The position numbers and the translations under genes were made by a program. The notes under the pieces are model-generated. The model saw only the letters and a list, made by a program, of their open reading frames with translations, made no database searches and was not told where the DNA came from. A stretch of 64,000 bases of DNA, taken from a virus. The DNA lies in the IMG/VR virus record IMGVR_UViG_3300047462_000185, positions 32,001 to 96,000 of that record; one strand, given 5' to 3'. Positions 10,737-36,740 of the stretch are shown here, piece by piece (the first letter of the stretch is position 1; each line of letters opens with the position of its first letter).

Positions 10737-10783
10737 CTCCTCGGTCCGGCACTATTGCCGGGGAAGCCTATTCTGGCTTTTCG
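10737..10783 (-). ncRNA. Hammerhead-like element H4 (type II; core CCGAGGA; UUC triplet)
   Basis: C-GAAA-AGCC/GGCU-UC-C-CCGGCA/UGCCGG-A-CCGAGGA-G. Confidence 0.7.
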
Positions 10784-11543
10784 GATGAGCCCTGGACCGG
10801 CGCCGGCGGCGGCTCAGGCCCCGCGCCTTCCTTGTCGTCGGGCGGAGCGGCGGGCGGCTGGTTGATCTTCTGGATCAGGTCATGGGCCAGTTCGGCCGCA
10901 ATCTTGTAGTGCAACTCGCGATCGAGGGCCGGCATGTTGGTGCGCCGCATCGTCTCCTCGATGATCAGGAAAGCGGCAAAAAGCATGTCCTGCATGGGCC
11001 GCTCGTTCAGCAGCGCGACGAGGATATTGTATGTCGCCATCGTGGCGGGAAACCGCATCTGAAGCAGGGCGCGTAGCTGAACGTCGAGGAATTTGGTGCG
11101 CTCGTGCGCCACCACCTCATCGGGCGAAGGGACAATGTTGAACAGCCTCATCGCGTCTTTCTCGTCCATGACTTCCTCGGCCTGGTTGAACAGGTAGGCC
11201 GCGGCGCGGCCTTTCAATTGGGTTTGGTAAGCCCGGAGCCACGGCCGATCAATCGGGATTGCTCGGTTTCGGCGTAATCGATGAAGCTCTTGGCGAGGCT
11301 TTGCATAGCGGCCTCGGTGCGGTTCCGCTCCTCCGGGGTGAAATTGCCATTGCGATAGACAGCCTCCAGTTCGGCGTGGAGCACGAACAGGATGATGATC
11401 TTCGATAACGGTTCGGCCATCAGAACGCCGGCGATGCGCTGACCGAGCTGAGTGACCTTCGATCTGTTGAGATCGATCATCATCTTCAGCTGGGCGGCCA
11501 ATCTTTCCTCGGCAGACATCTGGGAAATTCTGTCGTCTGGCAT
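10768..11543 (-). CDS. Two coupled hypothetical proteins (10768-11217, 11214-11543)
   Basis: Clean ORFs with 4 nt overlap, bracketed by H5 and H4. Confidence 0.6.
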
Positions 11544-11550
11544 TGGGTAT

Positions 11551-11606
11551 CTCCTCAGTCCGGCACTATTGCCGGGGAGCCCGACGGGTGCGCCGTCAGG
11601 GTTTCG
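11551..11606 (-). ncRNA. Hammerhead-like element H5 (type II; core CUGAGGA; CUC triplet)
   Basis: C-GAAA-C-CCUGACGG/CCGUCGGG-CUC-C-CCGGCA/UGCCGG-A-CUGAGGA-G. Confidence 0.7.
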
Positions 11607-11838
11607 TCGCGCGATTTTGCGTCTTCAGTTCGCGGTCAATCTCATGCCGCTCGGTTGTTGTCGTTTCCGATTGGTATAATTCATCCAACAGCCACGCCGT
11701 GGCCCGGCATGACGCCGCGATGCCGTCGCGCTTGCCGCAATAGGACGCAACAACCCGCTGCGCTGCTTCAATCGCTACGACGGCTCGCCGAAGCTTGGTG
11801 AGGTCTTCCATCGTCAGGTTTGTGCCAGATTCTGGCAT
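11596..11838 (-). CDS. Hypothetical protein
   Basis: Lies between H6 and H5; stop inside H5 stem III. Confidence 0.55.
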   Translation of the reverse strand: MPESGTNLTMEDLTKLRRAVVAIEAAQRVVASYCGKRDGIAASCRATAWLLDELYQSETTTTERHEIDRELKTQNRATKP

Positions 11839-11844
11839 TGGGTC

Positions 11845-11922
11845 TAACCTTTTCAACCGACGCACGATTGCGTCGAAACGCATCGAGCCGCAGGGAATGC
11901 CTGCGGCTCGATGTTTCGGTCA
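11845..11922 (-). ncRNA. Hammerhead-like element H6 (type II; core UUGAAAA, U3-A8)
   Basis: UGACC-GAAA-14 bp hairpin-CG-UU-UCGACGCA/UGCGUCGG-UUGAAAA-GGUUA. Confidence 0.7.
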
Positions 11923-13378
11923 GATGCTCAGTCGCTTGCAGATCTTGTCGACCTGCCCGCCAACTGTGGCAAGCTTGCTCGCAAGGTCCTCGGTCGAAGC
12001 GTCAACCGCTTCGGCGACGATGTCTTGCAGGCTGGGGGCTGTCTTGGACGGCACCTTGGTCTCCAGCAGGTCGAGATGCTGCTGCATCCCGGCCGCCGCG
12101 TCGGCGATGTCCTGGTCGGTAATGACGAACTGGCCTCCTCCGGCCCGACCGATCGCATAGAGCTTGGCGCGCTCCACGGCTTCACGGATCACGGCAGGAA
12201 TCTGGCCGGCCAAGACGAGGCCCGCGCGCTCCAGGGTGTCGGCCGCATCGAGGCGGGTGCGCCCATACAGGCGCATCAGCTTGCGAGCCGCCGGCGCGTC
12301 CGGGGGCGTCACGTCGATCACCGCATCGAGCCGACCAGGGCGAAGCATCGCCTTGTTGATCTGCTCGACGTGGTTGGTGGTAAGCGCCACCATGATCTCG
12401 GTGTTCTTCGACTGCACGCCATCGATCGTGTTCAGAATGTCGTCGATCTTCACGGTGCGGTCAGCGCCGGACAAGACCCGGTCGATGTCCTCCGCGAAGA
12501 TGACGCAGGGCTGGTAGGCCTTGGCGAAATCCAAAAGCGTTCGCGAGACCCTTGACCCGCTTCAGCAGCAGGAAGGTCCAGCCGTGCTCGACGGCGATCT
12601 TGGCCGTGGCATGGGCGGTCAGCGTCTTGCCCGTGCCGTAGCGGCCCGAGAGCAGCACACCCCGCTTCAGCGGGATCTTCTGCTCGCGGCACGCCGCGGT
12701 GTGCTTGATCGGGGTCCAGAGCGACGTTTCGATCTGCCGCTCCGTCACCTCGCTGAACACCAGCTCGGTCGTGTCGATCTTGGTCGTGTCGAGGAAGTTC
12801 AGTTCGTCATAGTCCAGGTCACCGTCATCATCGGCTGTCATCGCGAAGGCTTTGCCCTTGTAGATGGACTGCTCCGCGATGAACTTCCGGGTCAGATGTG
12901 CCAGTTCCACGATGGTCTTGTGGAACCGGCGCTCCACCTCGCCACCGATCAGGAAATTCAGACCGGTCTTGCTGCGCCAGGTGTCGCAGGCGACATAGCC
13001 GACGATGCCGGGGATCTCGAAGCGACCCCACACCACCGACATACGCTTGCCGTTGGCACCGATGGTGACATCGAGCGTTTGGGGTGGGTTGTGGCCCCAG
13101 AATCCCGGCGTCGGGACGGCTTCCGCCCAGCCGAACATCGTCGCCATCGCACGGTAAAACGCGACGGCGCCGTCGAGATAATGAGCGTTGATCTTCTCAT
13201 TGATCGCGACCTTCTGGGTCTCCTCGCGCAGCTTGCGCTGCAACGTGTCGATCGCGGTGGGCAAGCCCATCTCGGCCGGCTGGGCCGGTAGCGTGATGTG
13301 CTCGCCAAAGTGGCGAACCGGAACGTCGATCCCTTTGAAGGGATCTTCGAGAACGGCTGGGGTAAACGAATCAGGCAT
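11920..13378 (-). pseudogene. AAA+ ATPase split by a +1 frameshift near 12533
   Basis: Walker A GRYGTGKT in 12461-13378; Walker B VIFAEDID and LRPGRLD in 11920-12534; removing one T from GCTTTTGGAT restores ...LANALDFAKAY. Confidence 0.8.
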
Positions 13379-13475
13379 TTGTTTGTCCTGTTGTTGTGTC
13401 GCGGGGAGCAGCGCGACGGGAAAACTCCCAGCGCTCGCCAACCGTCATGGGGAAGGACGGCGAGGCTTCTGCGGC

Positions 13476-14129
13476 TCAGTTGTTGGTCCGAGCCGTGTCT
13501 TCAGGGGAGTATTCAGGAAGATCGATGTCGCGAAGAAGGTTGGAAAAGCGGCCAGTGCAGTTCTCGCGAAGTTCGTCATCCTTGTCTGGCACCAAGGCAG
13601 CGATATTGCCTTCGGTGTCGCGAATGATATCGAACATCGTGAGTTTTCGGACTGTCTGCGTTTCGCAGGTCATCACGACCACCTCGCGCCGGTCTGGCTG
13701 CTCCGAGGGTAGAAAATTCGGATCAGCCTTTAAGGCCTCAGGTGTGGACGTCGCGGTCCACGCTTCCATGACAAGGTAGATCAGGTCGGTGTTGCTCATG
13801 GAGCCGGCAAGTATCAGAGCGCCGGCCAGGGCATCTTTGAGATACGCCGAATTCGGCATGTCGCCCACGACGACCGGCACGAACATGCCGGATGAAGAAA
13901 CAAAGAAAGCGGTGAACGGACAGCTAGTCTTGCCGCGCAAGCTTGCCTCGATCATGGGACGAATTACGTCTCGCATGTGGCCGATCGGATCGGCTAATTG
14001 CTTGGCCACAATGTCGCGGGTGCGCTGCTCATATTTGCGCTTGGATAGTTCCACGACGTGAAAGACCAGATCCTTCAAGCTGCCGAACCTGACCTCGTCA
14101 TACTGTGGCGCGTTATGCGCTTCGCTCAT
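13476..14129 (-). CDS. Hypothetical protein
   Basis: MSEAHN..; MEAW..PSEQPDRREVV motif; RBS inside H7. Confidence 0.65.
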   Translation of the reverse strand: MSEAHNAPQYDEVRFGSLKDLVFHVVELSKRKYEQRTRDIVAKQLADPIGHMRDVIRPMIEASLRGKTSCPFTAFFVSSSGMFVPVVVGDMPNSAYLKDALAGALILAGSMSNTDLIYLVMEAWTATSTPEALKADPNFLPSEQPDRREVVVMTCETQTVRKLTMFDIIRDTEGNIAALVPDKDDELRENCTGRFSNLLRDIDLPEYSPEDTARTNN

Positions 14130-14193
14130 GGGGTATCTCCTCAGTGCCGCGCAGAATTGCGTGGCGTATGCCTTGGGGCATTTCGCTGAGCGA
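14122..14193 (-). ncRNA. Hammerhead-like element H7 (type II; canonical CUGAGGA, GAAA, AUA triplet)
   Basis: UCGCUCA-G-C-GAAA-UGCC/GGCA-UA-C-GCCACGCA/UGCGCGGC-A-CUGAGGA-G..UGAGCGA. Confidence 0.8.
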
Positions 14194-14314
14194 GACGACG
14201 CGCCGAATGGCGTTGATCCGCTTGCATATATGGTGATTTCCCGTTGCCCAGGCAACATGAAATCACATGGTCATGTGTTTTTCAAGCGGTTTTCACATGG
14301 TCCTGTGCGAATTC

Positions 14315-14328
14315 GTTCCACGTGGAAC
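14315..14328. promoter_or_regulatory. parS-like palindrome
   Basis: GTTCCACGTGGAAC matches the bacterial chromosomal parS consensus; intergenic, 0.9 kb from a ParB-like gene. Confidence 0.65.
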
Positions 14329-14334
14329 ACGGCG

Positions 14335-14562
14335 TCACAGGAGGGGGTCGAACTTCTGCTGCGCTGCGATGAAGTCCTGCGCGGCGCGGGCGGCGGCGAG
14401 ATATTCGACCGAGGGCCGCTTGTCGATCTCCTGGCCGGGCCGGTAGGTGGCCCACACTGCATCCCTGAGCGGCTTGGGCAGGCTGAACCAGTGCTGCTTG
14501 CACATGAACATCCGGGGCGGCACGGCCCGCTGGCAGCCCGGCGCGTGGCAGGTGTGGGGCAT
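14335..14562 (-). CDS. Small Zn-finger protein
   Basis: MPHTCHAPGC..MCKQHWFSLP. Confidence 0.6.
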   Translation of the reverse strand: MPHTCHAPGCQRAVPPRMFMCKQHWFSLPKPLRDAVWATYRPGQEIDKRPSVEYLAAARAAQDFIAAQQKFDPLL

Positions 14563-14820
14563 TACTGGGGCAACTCCATGTCCCATTCGTGGCCGCAAAT
14601 GTCGCACCGCATCGTCACGATATCGCCGCCGGGATATCCGTCGCGGTCAGCGATCTCGTATGCGGCCGGATGAACAGCCGGCGTCGGACCGCCCTTATGC
14701 CAGGGATTCAGTTCCGTGCAGACGAAACGCACTTTCTGAGGCGCTCTCTCAGGATTTGTCATCGACCGCTGCCGTCGCACTCAGGCGCAGCTTTCGCGCG
14801 CTCGCGATACGACTGCGACA

Positions 14821-15213
14821 TCAGGCCATTTCCTCGGCGCGGGCCTGGTGACGCGCCAGGGTGTGCAGCCGACCCAGCACCGAGCTACCCGCACGGGGTG
14901 GAACCATCTGCTTGCCTGTCAGGTGCGCCGAGACGCCCTGAGCCGCGAGGCGCAGGATGAAAGCATCATCTTCGGCGGTGAAAACGCGCACCACCCGTCC
15001 GGCGCGGTAGTTGACCGGCTTACGGACGGGGATCGCAGTCTGGCGCCGCAGTTCGGTCGGCAGATCGACGCCGTGGGTCAGGCAATGCCAGGCGATGCAA
15101 CCGGGCGACACGCCGAACCGCCGGGCAATCTCTGGGAAACCCAGGCCCTCGACCTCACGCATCTGGAACGCTCGGTCGAGGTCGTCCTGGCTGAGCTTGG
15201 CGATGCGCCTCAT
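14821..15213 (-). CDS. HTH DNA-binding protein
   Basis: GLGFPEIARRFGVSPGCI; second Myb-like FTAEDDAFIL segment. Confidence 0.65.
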   Translation of the reverse strand: MRRIAKLSQDDLDRAFQMREVEGLGFPEIARRFGVSPGCIAWHCLTHGVDLPTELRRQTAIPVRKPVNYRAGRVVRVFTAEDDAFILRLAAQGVSAHLTGKQMVPPRAGSSVLGRLHTLARHQARAEEMA

Positions 15214-16862
15214 TCCGCGGCCTCCTGCTGCCCGGCCTCCTCGTCGGCCTCCGAATCACCCTCGCCGTCATCGTCATCACCGGGTCGCGCCACGATGGGC
15301 GCCCGGTCGTCGAACCAGCCCGGCGGCGTCCAACCCGGCAGCTTGCCGACCAGCTGTGCGCGCAGCTTCGCCCCGGTCTTGGCCGGGACCATCTCCTTGC
15401 CCTCGGCCAGCAGCGCCAGCACGTCCGCATTGACGTGCGCCAGGAATTCCTCGGTGTCGAACCGTGGCTGCTCGACGTGGAAAATCTGGCTGCCAATCCA
15501 CCCCACGGCAGGGCCGCTCCCGATGCCCTTGCCGTCCGAGACTTGGATGATGCGGGACAGCGCCTCGCCGGCCATGATCTTCAGATCATCGACGCTCGCG
15601 CTGTTGGTGGGCCACGCCAGGGCGCGCTCCGCAATGTCCTCCATATTTTCGGTGCGCCACGCCACGCCATCCCTGGTGATCCGCAGATTGCTGGCCGCCA
15701 GCGCGATCAGCAGAAGCCTGATCATATTGGCGTCGCTGAGCGCCCGGATTTCGTCGGAGAACGCCTCGGCGAAGAAGCCGCGCTTCATCTCGTTCAGCAG
15801 GATTGCGCCCTTCTTGTCGATCGGCGGCTTCACTGTGACCGGCTTAGGGTCATCCTGGATCGCCGCTCGGCCCGGCGCGCCCTTCTTTTTCGCGCCGGCT
15901 TCGCTGATTGCGGCCGCCGTGGCGCGACCCATGCCATAGCCCTCGGGCACGACGCCGATCAGTAGCTTGCGGTCCGGACCCGGGCTGCGGATCGGCTTGC
16001 GCGCGTCGAACTGGATGGTGTGTTCCATCTTCCAGCCGGCCGGCGCCACCAGCAGGCCGGTCGGCCCGACCTCGCCATAGACGGCATGCTTGCTCTTGGC
16101 GGCCAACGCCTTCACGGCCTGCACCTGGCAGGCCATGAACTTTTTCGTGTCCGACGTGGTGAACCGGTCGTCGGCGTCAGGCTCGGCGAACAGGTCCTCG
16201 TCCCAGACGATGCCGAATGCGTCAGGATCGAACAGGGCATCGACCTTGTTCAGTCGCATCACCTCGCAGTGCCGCGCGATGTAATGCCACCGCGGCTCCC
16301 GCGCGCCCTTCGGGCCAGCCCAGGAGTGGCGATGCGCGATAGCCGCCTTCTGCATATCGCGCGGAGCCGCGACGATCCGGCGCAGCTCGTGGGTATTCGG
16401 GATGCCGTGCTCGGCAATGGCGGCCAGAACGTCCGGATGCGCGCCCGCGAGCAGAGTCATGCGGCGCGCCGTGGTCTCGGGAATGCCCAGGGACTGGGCC
16501 GCCAGAGCGACCGACATTCCCCCGTCCTGCAGCGTCTTCATGGCGCGCCACTGGTCGACCGGGTTCATGCTGCTGCGAACCATGTTCTCAGCCGCTCCAG
16601 CGGCGACGATCTGATCGCCGGAGCCGGCATGGTCGATCGCCTCGATCTCGGTCCAGCCCAGCGCCTGAGCGGCCCGCCAGCGCCTCTCGCCAGCGACGAT
16701 GACGTAACGTCGACCACCTTCCGGATTGTCGCGCACCAGGATCGGCTGCAGCTGGCCCAGCGTGGACATGCTGATCCGCAGCGCCTCGTCCGCCTCCCTC
16801 GAAGGCTTGATCCGCCGCACATTGTCCGGATCCGGGGAGATGTGCGTGATATCGATTTTCAT
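15210..16862 (-). CDS. parB: ParB/RepB/Spo0J family protein
   Basis: GQLQPILVR..IVAGERRWRAA..ENMVR followed by HTH. Confidence 0.85.
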   Translation of the reverse strand: MKIDITHISPDPDNVRRIKPSREADEALRISMSTLGQLQPILVRDNPEGGRRYVIVAGERRWRAAQALGWTEIEAIDHAGSGDQIVAAGAAENMVRSSMNPVDQWRAMKTLQDGGMSVALAAQSLGIPETTARRMTLLAGAHPDVLAAIAEHGIPNTHELRRIVAAPRDMQKAAIAHRHSWAGPKGAREPRWHYIARHCEVMRLNKVDALFDPDAFGIVWDEDLFAEPDADDRFTTSDTKKFMACQVQAVKALAAKSKHAVYGEVGPTGLLVAPAGWKMEHTIQFDARKPIRSPGPDRKLLIGVVPEGYGMGRATAAAISEAGAKKKGAPGRAAIQDDPKPVTVKPPIDKKGAILLNEMKRGFFAEAFSDEIRALSDANMIRLLLIALAASNLRITRDGVAWRTENMEDIAERALAWPTNSASVDDLKIMAGEALSRIIQVSDGKGIGSGPAVGWIGSQIFHVEQPRFDTEEFLAHVNADVLALLAEGKEMVPAKTGAKLRAQLVGKLPGWTPPGWFDDRAPIVARPGDDDDGEGDSEADEEAGQQEAAE

Positions 16863-17320
16863 CTCGTGTTGCTCCGCTGATGACGTTCAAGGTGGCGCTG
16901 CACCGAGGCCGGCGGGTCGCGGGGCCGGTCGGCCAGCCCCTTGCAAATTTGCACGACCCTGTCGCACGTCTCGATGTCGAAATACCCGATGTGACAGGCC
17001 GACGGCGTCAGATCGAGCTGCATGGCGAGGTAGCCGTAGGCCGCGCTGCGCGACATCATGCCGCTGCGCCAGAGTGGGTCGAACGCGTTATGAACGCGTA
17101 TCTTCGCGGCACGCAGCGCCTTGTCGGCCAGGCGGCCCAGCGGTGTGACGGTGCCTTTGTGGCATCCCACCCAGGCACCGCACGGCACGCAGGCCCACAG
17201 CGGCCCGTAATCGCGCCCGTTGTAGAAGCGCTCCGAGGATTGGAAGAAGCGTGCCGGCTTCCCGCAATAAGGGCACGTCACCGTCACACCGGCCGTCGCC
17301 TCGGATGTCGTGCTGCTCAT
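16859..17320 (-). CDS. DUF3268-like Zn-finger protein
   Basis: CPYC..C..CGAWVGCH..PLGRLAD..AFDPLW..CHIG. Confidence 0.75.
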   Translation of the reverse strand: MSSTTSEATAGVTVTCPYCGKPARFFQSSERFYNGRDYGPLWACVPCGAWVGCHKGTVTPLGRLADKALRAAKIRVHNAFDPLWRSGMMSRSAAYGYLAMQLDLTPSACHIGYFDIETCDRVVQICKGLADRPRDPPASVQRHLERHQRSNTR

Positions 17321-17688
17321 CAGATGCCTCCACGTCGGTTGGCCGACATGGTCTGCCAGGCGTCACACAGCATCCGGGACGCCTCGCGCCTGGCGCGCAA
17401 CGTCTCGAACCGAGCTGTGGCGCTGGCGTGCTCCTTGACCGCGTTCTGGTATTGGGAGCTGGCGCGCGCCTCCCACTTCTTCGCGTCGGCGGACCGCTCC
17501 TCGGACATGCCGGCGGCCAGGGCCTCGATCGAGCCGATCATGAATTCGGTGCGCACCATCTCGCCGCGCGCCGCGCCGACCTCCTCGGCGGACAGGGCGA
17601 GGAAGTTGAGCGCTTCCTCGACCTGGTTCTCGGTGACGAAGGCGCGGCCCGGCGGTTCCCGCCGGCGCGCGTTGTTGTCGTGCGACAT
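17320..17688 (-). CDS. Hypothetical coiled-coil protein
   Basis: Clean ORF inside the recombination operon. Confidence 0.6.
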   Translation of the reverse strand: MSHDNNARRREPPGRAFVTENQVEEALNFLALSAEEVGAARGEMVRTEFMIGSIEALAAGMSEERSADAKKWEARASSQYQNAVKEHASATARFETLRARREASRMLCDAWQTMSANRRGGI

Positions 17689-20554: not shown

Positions 20555-21154
20555 TCACGCTGCGGCCGGTTCGGACTCCGCCGACACCAGGGCCGGCGGA
20601 TCGAATCTCCGCTTGCCGCGGGCCTCCGAGTGCCGGATCACCTTGCGCCGGATTTCATCGGTCAGGGCGACATATTCGTGGTGCATGCGGCCGCCGGCCA
20701 GCAGGAACGCCTCGTCGGTATAGTCCGGCTTGGGCAGGGACGAGACCCAGCCGGGTCCGCGTTCCTTGCCCCAGCGGGACACCGCAGCGGCAGTGCTGGC
20801 CCAGAGGTAGGTTTGCGCCAAGGTGTGCCCCATCGGGGACTCCATGGAGCGGCTGTGCATCACGATCATGATCTCGGTCGGGCCAACCCTGTGGCCGGGC
20901 ATTTGCCCGAACAGGATCTTGAGCCGCTCTTCGTAGATCATGGCCTTCCACTCGTTGATGAATTCGATATCGGTCCATTTGCCGAGATTGTGGAACACGA
21001 CCGGACCGAACGTGTAGCGCCGCTGATCGGCGGTGAGGATCGGCAGATCGGGACATAGGTCGTAGCTGAATTCCAGAACGCGCGGCGGCGAGCCCATGCG
21101 GGCCAGCAGCAGCAGCATCTTCTGGTTCTGGTTAGTTCCGGGTATCTCTGTCAT
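20555..21154 (-). CDS. Hypothetical protein (paralogue of 21873-22670)
   Basis: VGPTEIMIVMH..YLWAS..EIRRKVI. Confidence 0.65.
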   Translation of the reverse strand: MTEIPGTNQNQKMLLLLARMGSPPRVLEFSYDLCPDLPILTADQRRYTFGPVVFHNLGKWTDIEFINEWKAMIYEERLKILFGQMPGHRVGPTEIMIVMHSRSMESPMGHTLAQTYLWASTAAAVSRWGKERGPGWVSSLPKPDYTDEAFLLAGGRMHHEYVALTDEIRRKVIRHSEARGKRRFDPPALVSAESEPAAA

Positions 21155-21223
21155 CGGACAGGTCTCCTCAGTCCTGGCTCCATTGCCAGGGGACCGCCTA
21201 GTCGGCGGCTTCGACGTCCGATG
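21152..21223 (-). ncRNA. Hammerhead-like element H8 (type II; CUGAGGA; GUC triplet; 11 bp stem II covering the AUG)
   Basis: CAUCGGAC-GUC-GAAG-CCGCC/GGCGG-UC-C-CCUGGC/GCCAGG-A-CUGAGGA-GAC-CU-GUCCGAUG. Confidence 0.8.
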
Positions 21224-21488
21224 TGATGCGGCGCTCATCCACGGCGAGCGCGATTGCTTCCCACTCCTTGCGGAGCTGGTCGAGCTTTTCGCAGCGCCGA
21301 CGATGCTGGGCCACAGCAACTTGCATCGCGCCGGGATCCTGCACGTAATAGTCGCGGCCGTTCGGATGAACCTCCTGAAGCAATTTCTGAAGCCGATCGA
21401 TTGCGTCGAGCACTTTTATGATTGGCTCGACCAGGCCGTCGCGTGACGTGCCGTTCATGTGCAGGGTGGGGATGGCGAGCTTTGCCAT
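21198..21488 (-). CDS. Hypothetical phage protein
   Basis: PTLHMNGTS..PNGRDYY motif. Confidence 0.7.
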   Translation of the reverse strand: MAKLAIPTLHMNGTSRDGLVEPIIKVLDAIDRLQKLLQEVHPNGRDYYVQDPGAMQVAVAQHRRRCEKLDQLRKEWEAIALAVDERRITSDVEAAD

Positions 21489-21492
21489 TGCG

Positions 21493-21557
21493 GGTCTCCT
21501 CAGTCCTGGCCCAATTGCCAGGGGACCGCCGATCAAACGAGATCGGCGGGGTCGACC
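21493..21557 (-). ncRNA. Hammerhead-like element H9 (type II; GAAA changed to GACC)
   Basis: GGUC-GACC-CCGCCGAUC/GAUCGGCGG-UC-C-CCUGGC/GCCAGG-A-CUGAGGA-GACC. Confidence 0.65.
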
Positions 21558-21820
21558 TTCTGTTTCCAGGGCGCCAGCTGATAGAACAGCGGCTCCAAGC
21601 GTCGCGTTGGCTCGACAAACACGTAGGTCATGTCGAGCTTACGCTTGTCTTCGTCGATCGTGGTGCCCAGGAAATGCACCTTCCAGCGATGCGCCAGATC
21701 CTGGCCCATCGTGCTATAGCCGAACGGGTTGTCTTCGTCGGCCGTCGGTGCGTCCTTGTTGGCGCGAACCCGTTCCAGGGTGGCGCGCAGCTTCTTCGGG
21801 TATTGCTTCTTCTTTGCCAT
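21533..21820 (-). CDS. Hypothetical protein
   Basis: GGAG RBS; stop in H9 loop III. Confidence 0.6.
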   Translation of the reverse strand: MAKKKQYPKKLRATLERVRANKDAPTADEDNPFGYSTMGQDLAHRWKVHFLGTTIDEDKRKLDMTYVFVEPTRRLEPLFYQLAPWKQKVDPADLV

Positions 21821-21829
21821 AGTATCTCC

Positions 21830-21903
21830 AATGGCTTCATCGGGCCGCGGGATGCGGCGAGCCTGACCGCCCCTATGCGGGGACGGCCTGCTCTTCTGCC
21901 ATT
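21830..21903 (-). ncRNA. Hammerhead-like element H10 (type II; core CCGAUGA)
   Basis: AAUGGC-AGAAG-AGC..GCU-C-GCCGC/GCGGC-CCGAUGA-A-GCCAUU. Confidence 0.6.
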
Positions 21904-29859: not shown

Positions 29860-30099
29860 TTAGAGGTCTTCAAGCCTAACCCCGTCCATCCCCAACGCAG
29901 CAAGCGTAGCCAGCAAGAAAGTCGCGGTCAGCGTGCCACGACTTAGCTTGTTGGTGATCGACGCTTCTGTCTCCTTCAAGCCGTGCTGATCCAGCCGGCG
30001 CGCCAGTTCGGCGTAGGTGACGCCCGCCCGCTTCAACTCGGCCTTCAAGAACCGGGTGGCCTTATCAGCCAGCTCCTTCTCGGTCGCGGCCAGTCCCAT
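29860..30099 (-). CDS. Small HTH protein (DUF6471-like) divergent from the transposase
   Basis: LKAELKRAGVTYAELA..ETEASITNKLSRG. Confidence 0.75.
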   Translation of the reverse strand: MGLAATEKELADKATRFLKAELKRAGVTYAELARRLDQHGLKETEASITNKLSRGTLTATFLLATLAALGMDGVRLEDL

Positions 30100-30203
30100 A
30101 GCTACCTCTCAAAATCAGCGGCAGCCCATCATATCCGATATTTTCCTGTAGACAAAGGCTGCTTGTCCTCTCACTATCGGTCGGTACCAACCGATAGTGA
30201 TAG

Positions 30204-31275
30204 ATGCCTCAGCACTTCCTCCTGTCAGCAAAGGCCCGGACGCTCTCGCTAGCGTCGGTGCTGCGCATGACGGACGAACAGGCTGAGACGGCCTTCATCC
30301 GCATCCGCTGGGCGGCGACCGAAGGCAAGCCGGTGTGCGTCCATTGCGAGTGCCCGACCGTGTGGGACTGCCGCAAGGCGAATGGCTTGCCCCGCTGGCG
30401 CTGCAAGGCGTGCCGCAAGAGCTTCTCAATCACCAGCGGCACGATCTTCGCTTCCCGTAAGATGCCGCTGCGCAACTACCTCGCGGCCATCGCGATCTTC
30501 GTCAACGAGGTCAAGGGCAAGTCGGCGCTGGCGCTGTCCCGCGATCTCGGGTGCCAATACAAGTCGGCCTACGTCCTTGCGCACAAGCTGCGCGAGGCGA
30601 TGGCGTCCGAGTTGAAAGGGCTGCGGCTGGGCGGTCCCGGCCGCGTGGCCGAAGTCGATGGCGGCTACTTCGGCGGCTACGTAAAGCCGTCCAACCGCGT
30701 CGAGAACCGCCGTGATCGCCGACTTGCCAAAAACCAGAACGGCAAGCGCCAGGTGGTCGTCGTGGTCCGCGAGCGCGAAGGCCGCACCCTTCCCGCAGTG
30801 TTCAAGTCGGAAAGCGCCGCACTCGGCTTCATCGCCCGCAGCGTCGCCAAGGACACCCAGATGATGGCCGATGAAGCCCCGTCATGGAACGGGCTGCATG
30901 CGCGGTTCGCCATGCAGCGGATCGACCATCAGGCGATGTATTCGGACCGGGCCGGGGTCTACACGAACGGAGCCGATCGCCAGGGCGAGACCGAACCGGA
31001 GCAGGACAAGGTCTCAGACATCATCGCCGGGCGCGCGCTGGCCTGTCTCGAACACGTCCGGAAGGTGCGGTTCGGCGAGGCGTCGGCAAATTTCCAGATC
31101 TCGGATAGCGACAATCTTCCCCTCATCGTGAATATCACGGTCAGCCTCGACCGCAACAAATGGACGCGGCACACCTGATGTCGTTCTGGGTGGTAAGCGT
31201 CATCGTCGCGCCGCTCGCGGCCGAAGTCGCCGCCGCCTATCTCGACTGCCGACACTGAGTAGTCACTAAACCCCG
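30204..31275 (+). mobile_element. IS1595-family element, transposase truncated at C-terminus
   Basis: Zn ribbon CVHC..CKAC, FSITSGTIF, EVDGGYFGG, MADE, IDH..YTNGA then unrelated tail; candidate right end AGTCACTAAACCCC near 31261-31274. Confidence 0.8.
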
Positions 31276-31783
31276 GACAGGAACATCACATTCTCGTCGC
31301 CCCCATCCAGCACTTAGCAGCGATTGAACTGACGGAGGCGAATGCCGCACTCGTTCGGTGGGGGCATCGCATGGGCGCATGCAGCCGGCCCAACGCCGTC
31401 ATCTGGCCGCATGGCATGTTCCAGCATGGGGAGTTGGTGGCCGTGACGATTGGGTCGTCGCTGATCAGAGAGCGGGTGGTTGGAGGCATGACGCGGGAGA
31501 ACGCGATGGAGTTGGCGAGGCTCTGCGCGGCTCGGACCGATCTGTGCCGCGTGATGCTTCGGCTTTGGCGCGAAATGATCTTTCCGGCCTATGGCTACGA
31601 GTGGGCAATCAGCTATCAGGACGAGGCGCTGCACTCGGGCGATACCGCTTTGACGGCTGGGTTGCACTCGGAAGGTCGCGGTCCGGCACCGATAGCCGGA
31701 GCGGCCGGAAAGGGCGCAACAAGACGATCTGGGGATGGCACCCCGACCCTGCCGTGCGGGCCGCGCGGCGATCGACCACCTAA
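31276..31783 (+). pseudogene. Mom-like / GNAT-fold DNA-modification gene remnant
   Basis: ELARLC..ISYQD..HSGD then frameshift to YRFDGW..KTIWGW; no start codon after the IS end. Confidence 0.5.
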
Positions 31784-31874
31784 CCCCGATCTGATCCTGG
31801 AGTTCCGCGCCGGTCAGGGGCGCCGCCGATAGCCGCGATTTGACAGCGCTGGCCGGCCCGTTCCAGCGTGGCGC

Positions 31875-32387
31875 ATGCCGTCGTTCCTCGACACGTTCTT
31901 CCCGACCAGGCCGGCCCAGGAGCGGCTCGAGCTGCTCGCCGCGCTCTATGAACCGCTGGGCCGGGAACTGGCCCTGGCCTACGAGAAGCTGGAGGACCAG
32001 GCCGCCCTGGAGCGCTCGCTGAGGGCCGCGGCCGACGCCAGCTTCGCTATTCCGGGCGCTGACATGGAGCGGATCGCCTCGATCAAGATGGCGCGGGTCG
32101 AGGCGCGCCTGATGACCCGGCTCGCGGTTCGGAACGTCCTGATGCGGCGCCTCTGTGCCGCGCTACAGGAGGTTCAGGACTGGCTGGCCGCCAATGTCAC
32201 GCCCGAGGGCCTGGAGGCCTGGGAGGCGCGCCACGGCCCGCTGCTCAGCGAAGAAGAGCTAATGGCTCGTTTGGGCGTGCTGCTGGCCGAGGCAGACCAG
32301 CGGGACGGATCCGATGCGGCACCCCGTAGTGATCTACCACGGCCCATAGATCGGCAAGGCTCCGAATCACATAGACCGGGTGATTGA
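31875..32387 (+). CDS. Hypothetical protein
   Basis: Helical ORF with phage-like codon usage. Confidence 0.55.
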   Translation: MPSFLDTFFPTRPAQERLELLAALYEPLGRELALAYEKLEDQAALERSLRAAADASFAIPGADMERIASIKMARVEARLMTRLAVRNVLMRRLCAALQEVQDWLAANVTPEGLEAWEARHGPLLSEEELMARLGVLLAEADQRDGSDAAPRSDLPRPIDRQGSESHRPGD

Positions 32388-32862
32388 GGGCCCGGATCTC
32401 GGTGTGGACCTCGCGCTGCCGGGGCTTGAGGTAGGTCTTCTCTTGGCCCGGGCCGTCGTCGATCTTCACCTCGAGCCAGACGGTGCGGCCGTCGCGTAGC
32501 AGCAGCATGAGATCGGGCCAGCCGGCCAGCATGCCCTCGGCGACGAGAATTCCGATGACGCCTTTACGAGGACCGCCGTTTGGCACCGCGACCAGGAGGG
32601 CGTCCCTCTTCGAGACGGCCCGGCGGAAAAAGTCCACCATCGCTTGCTGTAGGTTGGATTCGAGGTGCCGGTGCGGCGCGGCCGGCGCCGTCAGTTGAAA
32701 CTTTAAGTTGTCCTGGGCGAGCCGTTTCTTCGGCTTGGTGGGCCGCTTCGATATGGGCGGTGCAGAACCACCGGGTCCGTTCGATGTAGTAGGCGGCAGG
32801 CTGTCCCAGGCCTGGCGGGCAGAGCCCGAACCAGGCGTCTCCGCCACAGGTCTCACAAGCAT
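32245..32862 (-). CDS. VRR-NUC domain nuclease
   Basis: ESNLQ..AVPNGG..GMLAGWPDL..WLEVK..Q. Confidence 0.8.
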   Translation of the reverse strand: MLVRPVAETPGSGSARQAWDSLPPTTSNGPGGSAPPISKRPTKPKKRLAQDNLKFQLTAPAAPHRHLESNLQQAMVDFFRRAVSKRDALLVAVPNGGPRKGVIGILVAEGMLAGWPDLMLLLRDGRTVWLEVKIDDGPGQEKTYLKPRQREVHTEIRALNHPVYVIRSLADLWAVVDHYGVPHRIRPAGLPRPAARPNEPLALLR

Positions 32863-32936
32863 GTGTCGGTTTGTATCGTGATGTGGAACGCGCTTCGATC
32901 TTTTGGACCTATGAAAACCCACGAGTGTGTGCTAAT

Positions 32937-33227
32937 TTATTTTCGTTGGGTGGCGGCCGTTTCGGGTTTGGGTGCCAGAACGGTGCGCCGCGGGCGTCCC
33001 CCGCGTCGTTTGCGAGGCGCGGGGTCAGAGGATGTGGTTGGAGTGTGCCTTAGGATTCTCTCGAGCTGGGCGATTGTCTCGGGGCGAGGCTTCCAGTCGG
33101 GATCGAAAAGGCGGGCGATCGTGTTCTTGTGGAGACCGGTGATGCCGGCGAGATCGGCGTTTGTTGCTACAAGGCGAGCCGCCGCTGCCCGAATCTGGCT
33201 CATCAGCTGATCGATCTGCGATTCCAT
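32937..33227 (-). CDS. Cro-like HTH regulator
   Basis: NADLAGITGLHKNTIARL..WKPRPETI; divergent from the cI-like gene. Confidence 0.75.
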   Translation of the reverse strand: MESQIDQLMSQIRAAAARLVATNADLAGITGLHKNTIARLFDPDWKPRPETIAQLERILRHTPTTSSDPAPRKRRGGRPRRTVLAPKPETAATQRK

Positions 33228-33241
33228 GCCAACCAAAAAAA

Positions 33242-33255
33242 CACATTCTAATGTG
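33242..33255. promoter_or_regulatory. Operator-like palindrome CACAT-N4-ATGTG (about 18 copies in the window)
   Basis: CACATTCTAATGTG between cro and cI; other copies listed in findings. Confidence 0.7.
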
Positions 33256-33291
33256 AATATCAAGAAGTCGAGAAAGAGAGGCTCAGCGCAA

Positions 33292-34029
33292 GTGAGTGCG
33301 GCAAAAGACCGGAATCCCATACCATCAGACGGAGAACGTCAGCGCGAAGCGCTGCGCCGGATCATGGCTATGAAAAATGTGTCAGCAGCGGAATGGGCCA
33401 GGTTGGCTGGCCTGTCGAACGCCAACGCGATCTATAACCTCCAGGCGGGCCGGTCCGAGCACCTCTCGGTGCCCGTGCTGCAGAAGCTGGCCAAGGTATT
33501 CGAAGATATCGATCTATCCACTGTAACTGGCGAAATTTCATCCACTCAGCGTAAGATTCGACGCATGACAGTGAAGATGGTTGCGGTCCAAGGGGTGTGG
33601 CGTGACCAGGCCGATGCGCCGCTCGACGAGCAATACGACATCTCGGTGCCAGACAATGTGGATGGCAGCTTTGCGGTCCGCGTGGTGGGCCAGCACGCCG
33701 ACGAAATGCTGCCCGACGACAGCCACGTCATCATCGAGGAAGTGGGTCGCTTCCTGGGCGCGTTCTACTCGGGGATCTGGGTGCTGGTCCGGCGCAACCG
33801 GGGCCGCCAGGTCGAGGTGACGTTGCGCACCCTCACCTCGGACCGAGAGGGCAAGTGGTGGCTCATGGCGCGCAGCAAGTCGCCCGACCAGACCATGCCC
33901 AGCGTTCCGGTGCCGTGGCCCTACGAGGGGCAGGTCTGGTCGGTGGGCAACGAGCGCTACCAGATCATCGGTGTGGCGACGGATGCCGTTCTCTCCCTAA
34001 TCACGCGCCCGGTCCATATCGTCCGTTAA
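33292..34029 (+). CDS. CI/LexA-like repressor (HTH plus S24-like domain)
   Basis: SAAEWARLAGLSNANAIYNL HTH; C-terminal FAVRVVG..EVTLR..IIGV with the usual Ser/Lys dyad not evident; start uncertain. Confidence 0.7.
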   Translation: MSAAKDRNPIPSDGERQREALRRIMAMKNVSAAEWARLAGLSNANAIYNLQAGRSEHLSVPVLQKLAKVFEDIDLSTVTGEISSTQRKIRRMTVKMVAVQGVWRDQADAPLDEQYDISVPDNVDGSFAVRVVGQHADEMLPDDSHVIIEEVGRFLGAFYSGIWVLVRRNRGRQVEVTLRTLTSDREGKWWLMARSKSPDQTMPSVPVPWPYEGQVWSVGNERYQIIGVATDAVLSLITRPVHIVR

Positions 34030-34171
34030 GGCTACGCGACACACCGGAATATTTTCGGAATATTTTCGCCGGAATCGGGCGACCGGTTCCCTGCGTTGAC
34101 AACGGTTTGACCGTTCAATAAACCTCGATCCCTGGGCCACACAATCGTGTGGTATTTCGGTCGAGATTGCA

Positions 34172-34711
34172 TTGCCCTCGAAACGCAAGCGTCGATATCA
34201 CCGGGCCACAGCGCGTCACGTGACGCTGAGCCGCGACGCGGCCGGCACCCTCTCCCTGTCTCGAGTCGTTCACCCGCCGAAGGAGCGGCGCCAGCACGAC
34301 GTCGTGGTGCGCCAGGAGCGCATCGGAGAGGGTGGGCAGCGCCTCATAGCCTCCGCGATCGACAGGCCCACCGCGCTTGACCAGTTGGCCGCGGCCGGCG
34401 CGCTGGGCGAGGCAGAGGCAAAGCGGCGCCTTCTGGATGCGTCGGATTGGTTCAAGGAGCGGCTCGAGCTGCTCCAGCTGCGCGCCGTCGTCACGGCCGC
34501 GTTCGAGCGGCAGGCCAAGGGCGAGCGTGGCATGACGCCGCGGCAGGTCAGGGCGGACGCCGAGATGAAGCGCCTCGCCAAGGCGATCGGCGCCGAGCCG
34601 TTCAACCGGCTGTTCGACCTGCTGGTCTGGGACGTGCTGCCCCTGGTCGAGCCGCGCCGGCGCGAGACGGTGGAGGCGTTGGACGCAGCGGCGCGCCACC
34701 TTAAGCTGTGA
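34172..34711 (+). CDS. Hypothetical protein (antiterminator/late regulator candidate)
   Basis: Basic helical ORF ending ALDAAARHL after cI, with an operator upstream. Confidence 0.45.
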   Translation: MPSKRKRRYHRATARHVTLSRDAAGTLSLSRVVHPPKERRQHDVVVRQERIGEGGQRLIASAIDRPTALDQLAAAGALGEAEAKRRLLDASDWFKERLELLQLRAVVTAAFERQAKGERGMTPRQVRADAEMKRLAKAIGAEPFNRLFDLLVWDVLPLVEPRRRETVEALDAAARHLKL

Positions 34712-34835
34712 AACGGCTTGACCTGACCCGGCGCTTTGCTTGACATTGGGGTCTGCCAGAAAAGCGTCTTTGAGGGGTTCGAGGGCGGCCCTCGCCGGTG
34801 CAAGCCGGCAGGGTGGACGGAGCGGCGGAAACGAC

Positions 34836-34870
34836 GAAACCCCCGCAGGATTGCTCCTGCGGGGGTTTTT
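34836..34870. terminator. Bidirectional terminator
   Basis: AAACCCCCGCAGGA-ttgc-TCCTGCGGGGGTTTTT between converging genes. Confidence 0.8.
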
Positions 34871-34873
34871 GTC

Positions 34874-35065
34874 TCAGTCGGCAGCGCTGCCGAGCCGGTC
34901 GCCCAGGTCGATCACCTCGCCGGCGAGCGGCTCGGGCGACGGGGACTTGGTGGGCCAGAGCGACATGGCGCCCTTCACCAGCGTATAGGCCGGCGGTGCC
35001 AACACGGCACACGCCAGCTCGACGCGGTTGCGGGGCCGCAACGTGCTCATCATTGAGGTCAGCAT
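34874..35065 (-). CDS. Hypothetical protein
   Basis: AGGAG RBS after H12. Confidence 0.55.
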   Translation of the reverse strand: MLTSMMSTLRPRNRVELACAVLAPPAYTLVKGAMSLWPTKSPSPEPLAGEVIDLGDRLGSAAD

Positions 35066-35080
35066 GGTCGTCTCCTATAG

Positions 35081-35134
35081 GGATTGAGACTTGGCTGGGT
35101 CTCGTCAGCCTACGCGCGAGGGCGCGCAGATACC
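35081..35134 (-). ncRNA. Decayed hammerhead-like element H12 (type III; CUGACGA; GAAA changed to UCAA)
   Basis: GG-UA-UCUGCGCGC/GCGCGUAGG-CUGACGA-GAC/GUC-UCAA-UC. Confidence 0.55.
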
Positions 35135-35790
35135 GGGTCGCATGGGGTGGTTCGGGCGACCACCACACCCCCATGCCTCGCAAATGTGGGCCGAGCATGA
35201 TCCGGCTCGACGCGGCAGCGCATCATTCGTGCGCACTTCCTGGTCGCCCAAAGGGTGAAGTCCCGGTTTCAGTGTGTCGGCCGGTCCCGGGGGAACGGGT
35301 GGAACCGGCCGACCTGGTCACGCCACCGTCAGGGTCTCTTGGGCGGTGGCTACCGGGACGTGATCAGCTCCAGCAGGCCAAGGGCTGGGCGGGCGAGCGA
35401 TTGTGTTGGTTCGACACGTGTTGTCCGAACCGTGGCTTCGCGGCTGATCACGATCCACGCGCCGGCGCTTTCCGTCGTCATGGGCAAGCCCATCACCGGT
35501 GCGTTTCGGTGCGTTGGCCCGATCTGGTGACGTCCGCGCTGCCTCGGGTGACGCGGGTCGGAATCGGCTCTTGGCGGTATCTTGAGAATTGTCGAGAGAG
35601 TTGCCTGAGGTGCCGATACGTCTTCGATCGGTATCATCCTCTGATCCTGGCGTCCTTCGCCTGGACCGCTCGGTCGACGCGCCAGTGATTGGCAGCGTGT
35701 AGCACCGCTGAAGGGAGTGCGAGCGTCCTGTGGGATGATCGGCTGCTGCGCCAATGGCGCGCTGCCTGAGTGATAGATGGGGAGGCGTAT
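35135..35790. ncRNA. Candidate large structured non-coding RNA
   Basis: No credible ORF; many nested helices; G-U pairs favour the + strand. Confidence 0.5.
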
Positions 35791-35794
35791 CATT

Positions 35795-35841
35795 CCTTTC
35801 AAGGGGTGAACCCTTTCATCGGCCTGCATCGAGCAGGAAGG
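35795..35841 (-). ncRNA. Hammerhead-like element H13 (type III; core CCGAUGA; canonical C3-G8 and GAAA)
   Basis: CC-UU-CCUGC/GCAGG-CCGAUGA-AAGGG/CCCUU-GAAA-GG. Confidence 0.8.
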
Positions 35842-35855
35842 CCCGCCGGAGCGGG

Positions 35856-36213
35856 TTAGTCGGTGGGAGGCCGGTCGACGAAGACCGAGCCAACCTGCGT
35901 GTATGAGAATTTCCCGATATGCACGCTGGTGATGAAATTCACGCGCAGGCCAGCTTCATGAGCGGCTTGGATGGCTTTGTTGAGCTGATCAGACCTTTGG
36001 CGAATCAGCACTTCGTGTTCCTCGTCTGTCACGTCAGCCGTCCTTCGCGGTGATTTTCAGCTTCCAGTCGCCAACGGTGTTGCCGTTGATGTCGACGGCG
36101 TTGCCCTCCATGAGTCCGTTTTGAATCTGGTGGGAAACCTCGCGCAGTATGCGGGTCATTTCGCTTGCGCCATAGCCGTCGTTGAACGCGGCGTTGCCTG
36201 TGTCGATCTTCAT
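35856..36213 (-). CDS. Two small hypothetical proteins (35856-36032, 36034-36213; not in ORF track)
   Basis: MTDEEHEVLIRQRSDQLNKAIQAAHEAGLRV..; MKIDTGNAAF..DINGNTVG. Confidence 0.6.
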
Positions 36214-36228
36214 TCTGAATATGTGGTT

Positions 36229-36273
36229 CTCCTCAGTCCGGCGGGATGCCGGGCACCGGGTCAGCCGGTTTCG
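36229..36273 (-). ncRNA. Hammerhead-like element H14 (type II; CUGAGGA; G17)
   Basis: C-GAAA-CCGG/CCGG-UG-C-CCGGC/GCCGG-A-CUGAGGA-G. Confidence 0.7.
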
Positions 36274-36677
36274 ATTGCGTTTACGTCGGCGATACGCGCT
36301 ACGGTCTGGCGCTTGCCGTCAAGAGTCACACCTACGACGGAAGGGATAAACCCTGCCGCATCGTAGAAACGCACCACGCGGAAAATCAAAGTGGGATATC
36401 CGATCAAGGTGAAGTGGCTCATCTTTCGTCTCCTCAGTCCGGCGGGATCGCCGGGCACCGGCTAGGCCGGTTTCGTCTCAGGCCATTCGATGCCTTCCGC
36501 GACGCCTGCGAGATGATAGATGTCGCGGGGCGATACGTCAGTAGGAGCCGAAAGACGGCAAGCGTTCTGCGCGAAGGCGACCTTTGCCGCAGGCATTCCG
36601 GCTGCTGCGTTCCGGGCGAGATGCCGCAGATGTGGGTAGCGCCGCACGTAGGCGTCGAGAACTGATTGTGGGATCAT
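36261..36677 (-). CDS. Two small hypothetical proteins (36261-36422, 36462-36677)
   Basis: Each has its RBS in a type II element and its stop in the next element. Confidence 0.6.
36430..36475 (-). ncRNA. Hammerhead-like element H15 (type II; CUGAGGA; G17)
   Basis: C-GAAA-CCGGC/GCCGG-UG-C-CCGGCG/CGCCGG-A-CUGAGGA-G. Confidence 0.7.
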
Positions 36678-36683
36678 TATTTT

Positions 36684-36740
36684 CTCCTCAGTCCGGCGGG
36701 ATGCCGGGCATCCGGCCAGGTCGATCCTGGCCGGGTTTCG
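36684..36740 (-). ncRNA. Hammerhead-like element H16 (type II; CUGAGGA; G17)
   Basis: C-GAAA-C-CCGGCCAGG/CCUGGCCGG-AUG-C-CCGGC/GCCGG-A-CUGAGGA-G. Confidence 0.7.

Follow-up and report, generated by a model that had tools for sequence, protein, structure and literature searches.

Nine short RNA modules resembling type II hammerhead ribozymes lie between small early genes of an uncultured moss/peat phage (IMG/VR record IMGVR_UViG_3300047462_000185), all on the minus strand of the 64,000-nt stretch of this record that was analyzed (the window). Each module has the order C-GAA-A, hairpin, U-N, hairpin, and C(U/C)GAGGA-GA, followed by a spacer of 4 to 15 nt and an AUG; residue by residue, this corresponds to C11.1-G12-A13-A14-A15.1, stem III, U16.1-N17, stem I, and C3-U4-G5-A6-G7-G8-A9-G10.1-A10.2. 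The nucleotides from N7 to 10.2 read GGAGA, which is the usual Shine-Dalgarno sequence (SD) of the phage, whose typical pattern is GGAGA-N5-8-AUG. The overlap of core and SD is real and nonrandom, since N7 is G in 9/9 modules and in none of 18 other elements, namely, four type I-like copies in the same genome and 14 hammerheads of a distant relative (L122) whose own SD lies apart. Judged from their sequences, the modules are somewhat likely to be hammerhead-derived cistron separators (type II permutation) in early operons, with the 3' core strand recruited as the ribosome-binding site (RBS).

The copies are named here by the position of C3. Spacers from GAGGAG to AUG are 6, 7, 15, 7, 9, 7, 7, and 7 nt in copies 36691, 36437, 36236, 21503, 21171, 14144, 11558, and 10744, respectively, and 4 nt in 11180, a ninth copy that is apparently absent from the list of the preliminary description; 7/9 spacers are thus 6 to 9 nt long. 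That description had placed the core C(U/C)GAGGA-G 6 to 9 nt before the next AUG. All of the strings it quoted are present, on the minus strand, and the core was found in the eight copies listed; the spacing holds in seven of these and fails at 36236.

Three copies lie within 36.2 to 36.7 kb. Copy 36691 (H16-like; 36675 to 36740) has C-GAAA, a 9-bp stem III, U-G17 (36709), stem I (CCGGC/GCCGG), and A-CUGAGGA-GA before the AUG at 36677, and the upstream stop codon UAG is immediately 5' of GAAA. Copy 36437 (36420 to 36475) carries G17 at 36456, the upstream stop UAG in the stem III loop, the SD GGAGA at 36433 to 36429, and the AUG at 36422. Copy 36236 (36211 to 36273) combines G17 at 36254 with a 2-bp stem II; its stem III loop holds the stop UGA, and its AUG is at 36213. 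In copy 21503 (H9; 21486 to 21554), GAC-C replaces GAA-A, the stop UGA falls within the 9-bp stem III, U-C17 is at 21524, stem II has 4 bp (GGUC/GACC), and the AUG is at 21488. Copy 21171 (H8; 21152 to 21223) has GAA-G, with G15.1 opposite U16.1; its stem III loop includes the stop UAG, C17 is at 21192, and the SD GGAGA is at 21167 to 21163. The core of copy 14144 (H7; 14122 to 14193) is fully canonical, with GAAA, an A15.1-U16.1 pair, and A17 at 14167; this copy is located in a 5' leader and has no upstream open reading frame (ORF). Copy 11558 (11541 to 11606) has canonical core residues, a bulged C before U16.1, C17 at 11577, a 1-bp stem II, and its AUG at 11543. Copy 11180 (11167 to 11216) has the UGA of the upstream gene overlapping GAAA, a 7-bp stem III, U-A17 at 11195, a stem I (CCUG/CAGG) without the extra A, and its AUG at 11169. 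In copy 10744 (10727 to 10783), the stem III loop contains the stop UAG; C17 is at 10763 and the AUG at 10729.

By our own tabulation, each copy keeps 11 to 13 of 13 hammerhead-defining features. Stems I and III are present in 9/9 copies; stem III is different in every copy, and stem I occurs in five co-varying versions. GAAA is found with U16.1 in seven copies, in two of which a mismatched or bulged nucleotide adjoins the pair, the exceptions being G15.1 in H8 and GAC-C in H9. The core is CUGAGGA-G in seven copies, CCGAGGA-G at 10744, and CCGAGGA-A at 11180, so that C4 is found in two. N17 is C or A in six copies and G in the other three, and 8/9 have either a mismatched C1.1/A2.1 or an additional A preceding C3. 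Positions 10.1 and 11.1 form G-C in eight copies and A-U in 11180, a compensatory change between paralogous copies within this one genome. The stop codon of the upstream gene is in or beside stem III, mostly in its loop. C-GAAA occupies varying codon positions in unrelated upstream genes or lies immediately after their stop codons, which argues for conservation at the RNA level. The proteins encoded downstream are unrelated to one another; therefore, the modules were not simply copied along with genes, and paralogy of the downstream genes was rejected as the origin of the repeated leaders. The hairpins were also considered as terminators, which was rejected because no T-tract follows them.

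These features bear on whether ordinary SDs after GC-rich hairpins have been over-read as ribozymes. GGAGA is the generic SD of the phage, and GC-rich DNA gives many hairpins, but a strict GAA/hairpin/hairpin/CYGANGA descriptor matched 6 genomic sites, whereas 30 shuffles gave 0.2 on average, and GAA, U-N, and CYGA occur in the correct permuted order in nine copies. Chance is scarcely a credible explanation of the array.

The 3' core strand is the sole SD-like sequence before each start codon of the family. Judged by complementarity to the 16S 3' end and by a position 5 to 10 nt before the start of a real ORF, which the spacers of 15 and 4 nt depart from, it is an SD element; pairing of GGAGA with the anti-SD was scored in two family copies at about -9.2 kcal/mol, among the strongest values in the window, with a generic anti-SD that may not be that of the host. 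The downstream ORFs encode 53 to 217 amino acids and have raised GC3. An SD does not need CUGA, as other genes of this phage have A/U-rich letters before GGAGA, and N7, normally a free position, is fixed to G only in the type II-like modules. We found no paper describing a hammerhead core that doubles as an SD in this layout.

In the mechanism that we propose, RNAs with intact cores (14144, 11558, and perhaps others) would cut themselves after N17. The upstream message would then end in a protective hairpin, and the downstream message would have the stem I hairpin at its start and, right after it, a single-stranded SD. Because stem II is only 1 to 4 bp in most copies, the cleavage products would separate at once in most cases. 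The same five nucleotides could not serve the catalytic fold and the 30S subunit simultaneously, so folding or cleavage and initiation would be successive or competing events. Copies with G17, C4, or a lost GAA would survive because the SD and hairpin functions remain. The preliminary description had offered a translational switch as a possible reason that the copies with G17 (H14 to H16) are retained. Since the 3' halves of these three copies are near-identical, they count as one event rather than three; that the 3' core strand is retained for its role as an SD is a reasonable reading. G17 variants of tertiary-stabilized hammerheads are described as staying active (PMC3884650).

Alternatively, two hairpins and ACUGAGGAGA may constitute a standard recombining translation-initiation module, a noncatalytic leader cassette in which the stop-in-loop hairpin stabilizes the 3' side, the second hairpin insulates or stabilizes the 5' side, and a strong SD comes next. 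No copy would cleave, and the likeness to hammerheads would be an ancestral relic. At least one core deviation is present in all copies except two, and stem II is mostly absent, as such a cassette would allow. Near-identical 3' halves also stand before unrelated genes, both in the 36.2- to 36.7-kb trio and in the pair 11558/10744, which have about 45 nt in common, including the first codons; this fits homogenization or cassette exchange. However, C-GAAA, U16.1, and CUGA are kept despite complete turnover of the stems and differing upstream reading frames, and a hairpin-plus-SD module has no need of these letters. The compensatory 10.1/11.1 change in 11180 likewise speaks against the cassette, which we regard as possible but doubtful.

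Database and model searches gave the cassette some further support, as scores with Rfam and with our own model were inseparable from noise. No hammerhead was detected with Rfam at the gathering score over the window, at an E value of ≤10 over positions 9500 to 38000, or with RF02276 on the whole genome. Searches of small loci returned only subthreshold matches, to Hammerhead_II (18.5 bits), RAGATH-10 (19.1 bits), HH9 (17.4 bits), and M23 (about 17 bits). The best Hammerhead_II match was H8, at 18.5 bits versus a gathering score of 37, and no copy reached the threshold; canonical type I hammerheads of L122 likewise score below the Rfam threshold (20 to 25 bits versus 34). With a covariance model (R1) built from the three canonical type II hammerheads of L122, the copies scored 10 to 14.6 bits (E values, 0.16 to 2.4) and were mixed with noise. 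When the copies were aligned with MAFFT, GAAA was misplaced. Among viral contigs, the pattern GAAA..YNCC..GGACTGAGGAG matched 118 stretches that, after hairpin filtering, look like chance hits.

RNA-library contigs are also in keeping with a noncatalytic module but decide nothing about cleavage or expression. Contigs from four moss/plant metatranscriptome runs, which are of low depth and show neither ends nor strand, span the predicted cleavage sites of H8 (21139 to 21366) and H7 (13457 to 14197) uncut. This is compatible with little or no cleavage, and DNA carry-over is possible.

According to the preliminary description, the folded element hides the initiation site, and cleavage or unfolding by an upstream ribosome releases it. 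Both helices named in its support are present. In H8, stem II consists of 3 bp, a CU bulge, and then 8 bp formed by CAUCGGAC (21223 to 21216) and GUCCGAUG (21159 to 21152), the latter covering the AUG at 21154 to 21152. In H7, 1 bp beside the core is followed by an internal loop and then by 7 bp, in which UCGCUCA (14193 to 14187) pairs with UGAGCGA (14128 to 14122), overlapping the AUG at 14129 to 14127; this helix extends outwards (to 16). With the 5' part removed, the AUG of H8 has a predicted unpaired probability of 0.67 instead of 0.02, and that of H7 has one of 0.66 instead of 0.23. A helix over the AUG is found only in these two copies; in the minimum-free-energy fold of 36437, the SD and AUG are likewise masked, by a distal helix with upstream sequence (CAUCU..UCUC).

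As a general rule, masking did not hold. The mean duplex energy of cognate flanks is -11.1 kcal/mol, versus -11.5 kcal/mol for 56 noncognate pairs, and H7 alone stands out (z, -2.9; H8, -1.05). In the family, the SD has a predicted unpaired probability of 0.40 and the AUG one of 0.30, compared with 0.38 for each in 19 control genes, and stem II adjoining the core is 1 bp in 5/9 copies (the remaining four have 2, 3, 3 [+8], and 4 bp). By these predictions, masking by a long stem II is confined to H8 and H7 and is not a family trait. Release by cleavage is inconsistent with this anatomy: where the AUG is masked, the products are predicted to stay paired (-8.5 kcal/mol in H8 and -11.7 kcal/mol in H7), and in copies whose products would part, no AUG is masked. 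For H8, an upstream ribosome could plausibly bring about release, as the upstream ORF contains the 5' strand of its stem II, 4 to 7 codons before the stop; H7 has no upstream ORF. In H8, ribosomes that finish the upstream gene, rather than cleavage, would then lift the masking (translational coupling).

A switch in which folding of the ribozyme conceals the SD and start codon until self-cleavage or an upstream ribosome frees them, gating each gene, is therefore decidedly improbable as an account of the family. Beyond the H7 and H8 helices, it can draw on the pairing of CCUU with the AAGG of the SD in type III-like copies (SD unpaired probability rising from 0.29 to 0.51) and on engineered hammerheads that mask an RBS and free it by cleavage in Escherichia coli (PMC3664830). 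Set against it, in addition to the pairing and accessibility results, are the G15.1 of H8 and the fact that catalysis is only putative in every copy. A bolder reading, in which the hammerhead fold and the 30S subunit compete for N7 to 10.2 and cotranscriptional folding and cleavage, or their prevention by a ribosome terminating in the stem III loop, determine for each cistron if and when translation occurs, is unlikely; if true, it would be a natural, array-wide system of ribozyme-gated translation and processing in a phage early operon.

The modules share the permuted order GAAA, stem III, UH, stem I, and CUGANGA, open at stem II, with the clustered type II (and types I and III) hammerheads known from phage and prophage genomes (Perreault et al. 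2011, PMC3088659; RF02276). In both cases, the elements lie between small phage genes, in many copies per operon and in a GC-rich context of alphaproteobacterial type, and several hammerheads flanking single prophage genes have been documented (PMC3088659). Unlike those hammerheads, the modules have an N7-to-10.2 segment that is itself the SD, without a separate leader; their 5' third falls within the upstream ORF, whose stop codon is in the stem III loop; and they show the C1.1/A2.1 mismatch, often a 1-bp stem II, three G17 copies, and uniformly subthreshold Rfam scores. There is no mention of an SD or RBS in PMC3088659. The role of many phage and prophage hammerheads has been open since their discovery in 2011. 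A catalytic strand that is also the RBS, with the upstream stop inside a ribozyme stem, would tie RNA cutting directly to translation, and modules of this kind would illustrate how a ribozyme motif may degenerate into a translation signal or be retained as one. This is relevant to annotating such motifs and to judging noncanonical cores.

In an engineered switch built on the Schistosoma hammerhead, an extended stem I sequesters the RBS by base pairing, and the ribozyme is proven to be fast (PMC3664830). As in that switch, the hammerhead stands directly before a bacterial start codon, ribozyme structure opposes 30S binding, and cleavage can free the RBS. The SD of the modules is instead in the unpaired core or junction, stem II is mostly too short to mask, and activity is only putative; an SD or start codon paired in a ribozyme stem and released on cleavage was not found.

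Pairing of an initiation region with upstream coding sequence is a general principle of translational coupling in bacteria and phages. The AUG of H8 pairs in this way with codons close to the 3' end of the upstream ORF, so terminating ribosomes would open it, but the arrangement is confined to this one copy, or to two if the distal helix of 36437 is counted. The RAGATH-10 motif (RF03147) also starts with GAAACC, and its 3' hairpin (CNGGC-AUYCC-GCCNG) followed by GAGGAGAAA resembles copy 36691, whereas its defining outer helix (CCUCAUC/GAUGAGG), in which CCUC after GAAA pairs with the GAGG of the 3' GAGGAG, is absent here, its columns being mismatched. Copy 36691 is the only match in the genome, a weak one at 19.1 bits versus a gathering score of 41.2, which leaves it outside that family.

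A single-protein search of viral contigs for relatives of the phage found nothing, and a search for a close cultured phage found none. Alignment-based scans returned relatives at 31 to 40% identity only, and among them, our scans detected hammerhead-like elements in L122 (IMGVR_UViG_3300036780_000230) alone. In L122, gene junctions carry at least 11 type I and 3 type II hammerheads, all of them canonical. The two arrays are alike in this position, in having type I and type II permutations side by side, and in one early protein family (36% identity); the L122 copies differ in having C or U at N7, a 4-bp stem II, pairing of 1.1 with 2.1, and GGAGA in a separate leader of about 20 nt. The gene at 20555 to 21154 has relatives at 92% and 47% identity.

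Hammerhead-like elements of other types occur in the same genome. Type I-like copies have CUGAUGA or CUGACGA cores. For type III-like copies, the preliminary description had GAAA-GG as the RBS, and GAAAGG is indeed 6 to 9 nt upstream of an AUG or GUG in nine of them (9898, 10402, 37434, 38061, 38545, 39064, 39258, 39805, and 42544), all outside positions 10737 to 36740. The copy at 10387 to 10470 (minus strand) consists of a stop-codon hairpin, GCCUU, a hairpin, GCGAUCA, a hairpin, and A-GAAAGG (10402 to 10397), followed after 7 nt by an AUG; its CCUU is able to pair with the AAGG of the putative SD. A second copy, at 9884 to 9965 (minus strand), has GAAAGG at 9898 to 9893 and a GUG start codon at 9886.

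Nine copies of one module, a type II hammerhead-like spacer between small early genes, lie on the minus strand of the window, which covers bases 32001-96000 of a 106.6-kb IMG/VR virus record. A regular-expression listing combined with folds identified eight copies (C3 at 36691, 36437, 36236, 21503, 21171, 14144, 11558, and 10744), and a descriptor search added a ninth (C3 at 11180). The copies share the plan C-GAA-A, hairpin, U-N, C, hairpin, A, C(U/C)GAGGA-GA, spacer, and AUG. A minus-strand early operon at 9 to 23.8 kb contains genes for ParB-N, YqaJ exonuclease, ERF, and SSB, and small minus-strand genes are also found at 35 to 43 kb. The DNA runs containing the sequence come from moss metagenomes, and one early gene has its nearest genomic relatives in Rhodopila (Acetobacteraceae) and other proteobacterial MAGs; no close cultured phage was found in the collection searched. 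An array of 14 tRNA genes is located on the plus strand at 61395-63924.

The preliminary description proposed that the ribozyme core doubles as the Shine-Dalgarno (SD) sequence, and the sequence supports this proposal. Genes of the phage that lack a module typically have GGAGA 5 to 8 nt before the AUG, with A/U-rich sequence ahead of it. The modules supply this GGAGA from core positions N7-G8-A9-G10.1-A10.2 (hammerhead numbering), and no other SD-like sequence precedes the module AUGs. N7, the only free position of the core, is G in nine of nine module copies versus 0 of 18 hammerheads elsewhere, comprising the four type I-like copies of the phage and 14 hammerheads of L122 (IMGVR_UViG_3300036780_000230), a distantly related viral contig; all 18 have a separate SD. 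The restriction of this G to the modules is the strongest support for the apparent dual use of the core. The sequence observation is sound, and the overlap between core and SD is non-random. Since the SD fixes A10.2, stem II is possible only with U at 11.2, which is present in just three module copies, and stem II is therefore poor. In prophages, multiple hammerheads flank single genes, and processing of long transcripts has been proposed (Perreault et al. 2011). That paper does not mention an SD. A full-text literature search turned up no paper in which the core of a natural hammerhead acts as an SD. A variant element at 21820-21900 (minus strand) has CCGAUGA at 21843, no GAAA, a GGCU/AGCC helix around its second hairpin and core, and its own SD (GGAGAUACU-AUG), which shows core and SD uncoupled inside the same operon.

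Several lines of evidence argue that the module is more than an SD behind hairpins. A strict descriptor that requires GAA, a pair of perfect hairpins, and CYGANGA matched 6 sites in the whole genome versus 0.2 per shuffle. Stem III differs in every one of the nine copies and stem I has five co-varying forms; despite this turnover, C11.1-GAA-A, U16.1, and C-U-G-A persist, and each copy retains 11 to 13 of 13 tabulated hammerhead-defining features. Because the upstream ORFs are unrelated and GAAA falls at their codon position 1 or 3 or just past their stop, the motif is conserved at the RNA level. Copy 11180 carries an A10.1-U11.1 pair where the other eight have G-C, and the proteins downstream of the modules are unrelated to one another. 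No T-tracts follow the module hairpins. The best reading of the modules is as cistron separators that derive from hammerheads and whose 3' core strand is the ribosome-binding site.

Placement of the upstream stop codon is also regular. Of the eight copies with an upstream ORF, seven have it 26 to 40 nt before C3, mostly in the stem III loop; in copy 36691 it is 52 nt before C3, immediately 5' of GAAA. The same placement holds in the type III-like and type I-like element families. With the stop codon within or beside the module, a terminating ribosome would keep the module unfolded. In the ninth module (11167-11217, minus strand), the upstream UGA overlaps the GAAA, and the gene whose mechanical annotation begins at TTG 11217 is implied to start at AUG 11169. 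The modules at 10727-10770 and 11541-11584 (minus strand) are near-identical over ~45 nt. The match takes in the three initial codons (Met-Pro-Asp), although the encoded proteins are otherwise unrelated, and points to gene conversion or cassette exchange at the modules.

The best module copy scored 18.5 bits against an Rfam gathering score of 37. L122, a 46-kb contig reached via one shared early protein (36% identity), has canonical hammerheads at one gene junction after another (250-12870), at least 11 of type I and 3 of type II. All of them stay below the Rfam gathering thresholds, the type I copies with 20 to 25 bits against 34. Since Rfam misses even these textbook hammerheads, the low scores of the present copies are weak evidence against them, yet by this membership criterion they fall outside the family. 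With a model from the three L122 type II copies, the present copies were inseparable from noise. Any catalysis is doubtful for several of the module copies. Hammerhead G17 variants can be active when tertiary contacts stabilise them (PMC3884650). The type I-like copies of the phage itself have CUGAUGA or CUGACGA cores (41159 and 43000) or CAGACGA cores (41513 and 42288), and all four have stem II and GAA. In this family (41159-43110, minus strand), C15.1-G16.1 replaces A-U in at least three copies, upstream of starts 41159, 41513, and 42288, where a stem III or stem II loop contains the upstream stop; the separate SD (AGGAGA) is 10 to 15 nt downstream. In the L122 type I hammerheads, GCGG-AAGUCA-CCGC past the cleavage site can refold as a small 5' hairpin before a conserved leader ending in GGAGA.

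The folded element had also been proposed to mask the start codon until cleavage or an upstream ribosome releases it, and engineered RBS-masking hammerheads are a functional precedent (PMC3664830). The AUG-covering helices described for H8 (copy 21171; 21223-21216 with 21159-21152) and H7 (copy 14144; 14193-14187 with 14128-14122), both on the minus strand, are exact. For pairing of the 35 nt ahead of GAA with the 30 nt that follow the core, the mean duplex energy was -11.1 kcal/mol with cognate flanks versus -11.5 in 56 non-cognate pairs, and cognate pairing was exceptional only in H7 (z -2.9; H8, z -1.05). Predicted unpaired probabilities of 0.40 (SD) and 0.30 (AUG) in modules match the 0.38 and 0.38 of 19 control genes. 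Predicted pairing of the cleavage products is -11.7 kcal/mol in H7 and -8.5 in H8 (-3.7 to -6.4 in other copies), so that the H7 and H8 products would stay paired and cleavage would not free a masked AUG where one exists. A general start-codon switch across modules is therefore not supported. Translational coupling through terminating ribosomes is plausible for H8, as its masking strand lies inside the upstream ORF, whereas H7 has no upstream ORF.

The type III-like elements form a second, larger family of at least nine copies (9884-10470 and 37420-42620, minus strand). The reported GAAAGG 6 to 9 nt before the start codon is real in nine copies, all outside the originally given range of 10737-36740. 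The order is stop-in-loop hairpin, GCCUU, hairpin, GCG(A/U)(U/C)CA, hairpin GCCGG..CCGGC, A-GAAAGG, N6-9, and start codon. The topology is that of a type III hammerhead, but with G3, C4, and C8, and matches to Rfam M23 are weak and sub-threshold (about 17 bits). A CCUU/AAGG helix pairs with the putative SD, for which the predicted unpaired probability rises from 0.29 to 0.51, a modest predicted effect.

Four metatranscriptome runs yielded low-depth contigs over parts of the operon that span the H8 and H7 sites. Because such contigs do not resolve strand or RNA ends and may include carried-over DNA, they were counted neither for nor against cleavage. Upstream of H7, at 14200-14300 (minus strand), the sequence is richer in AT and contains inverted CACATG/CATGTG repeats; because the deepest contig from the RNA libraries stops near 14197, this region may be a promoter or operator with a transcript start.
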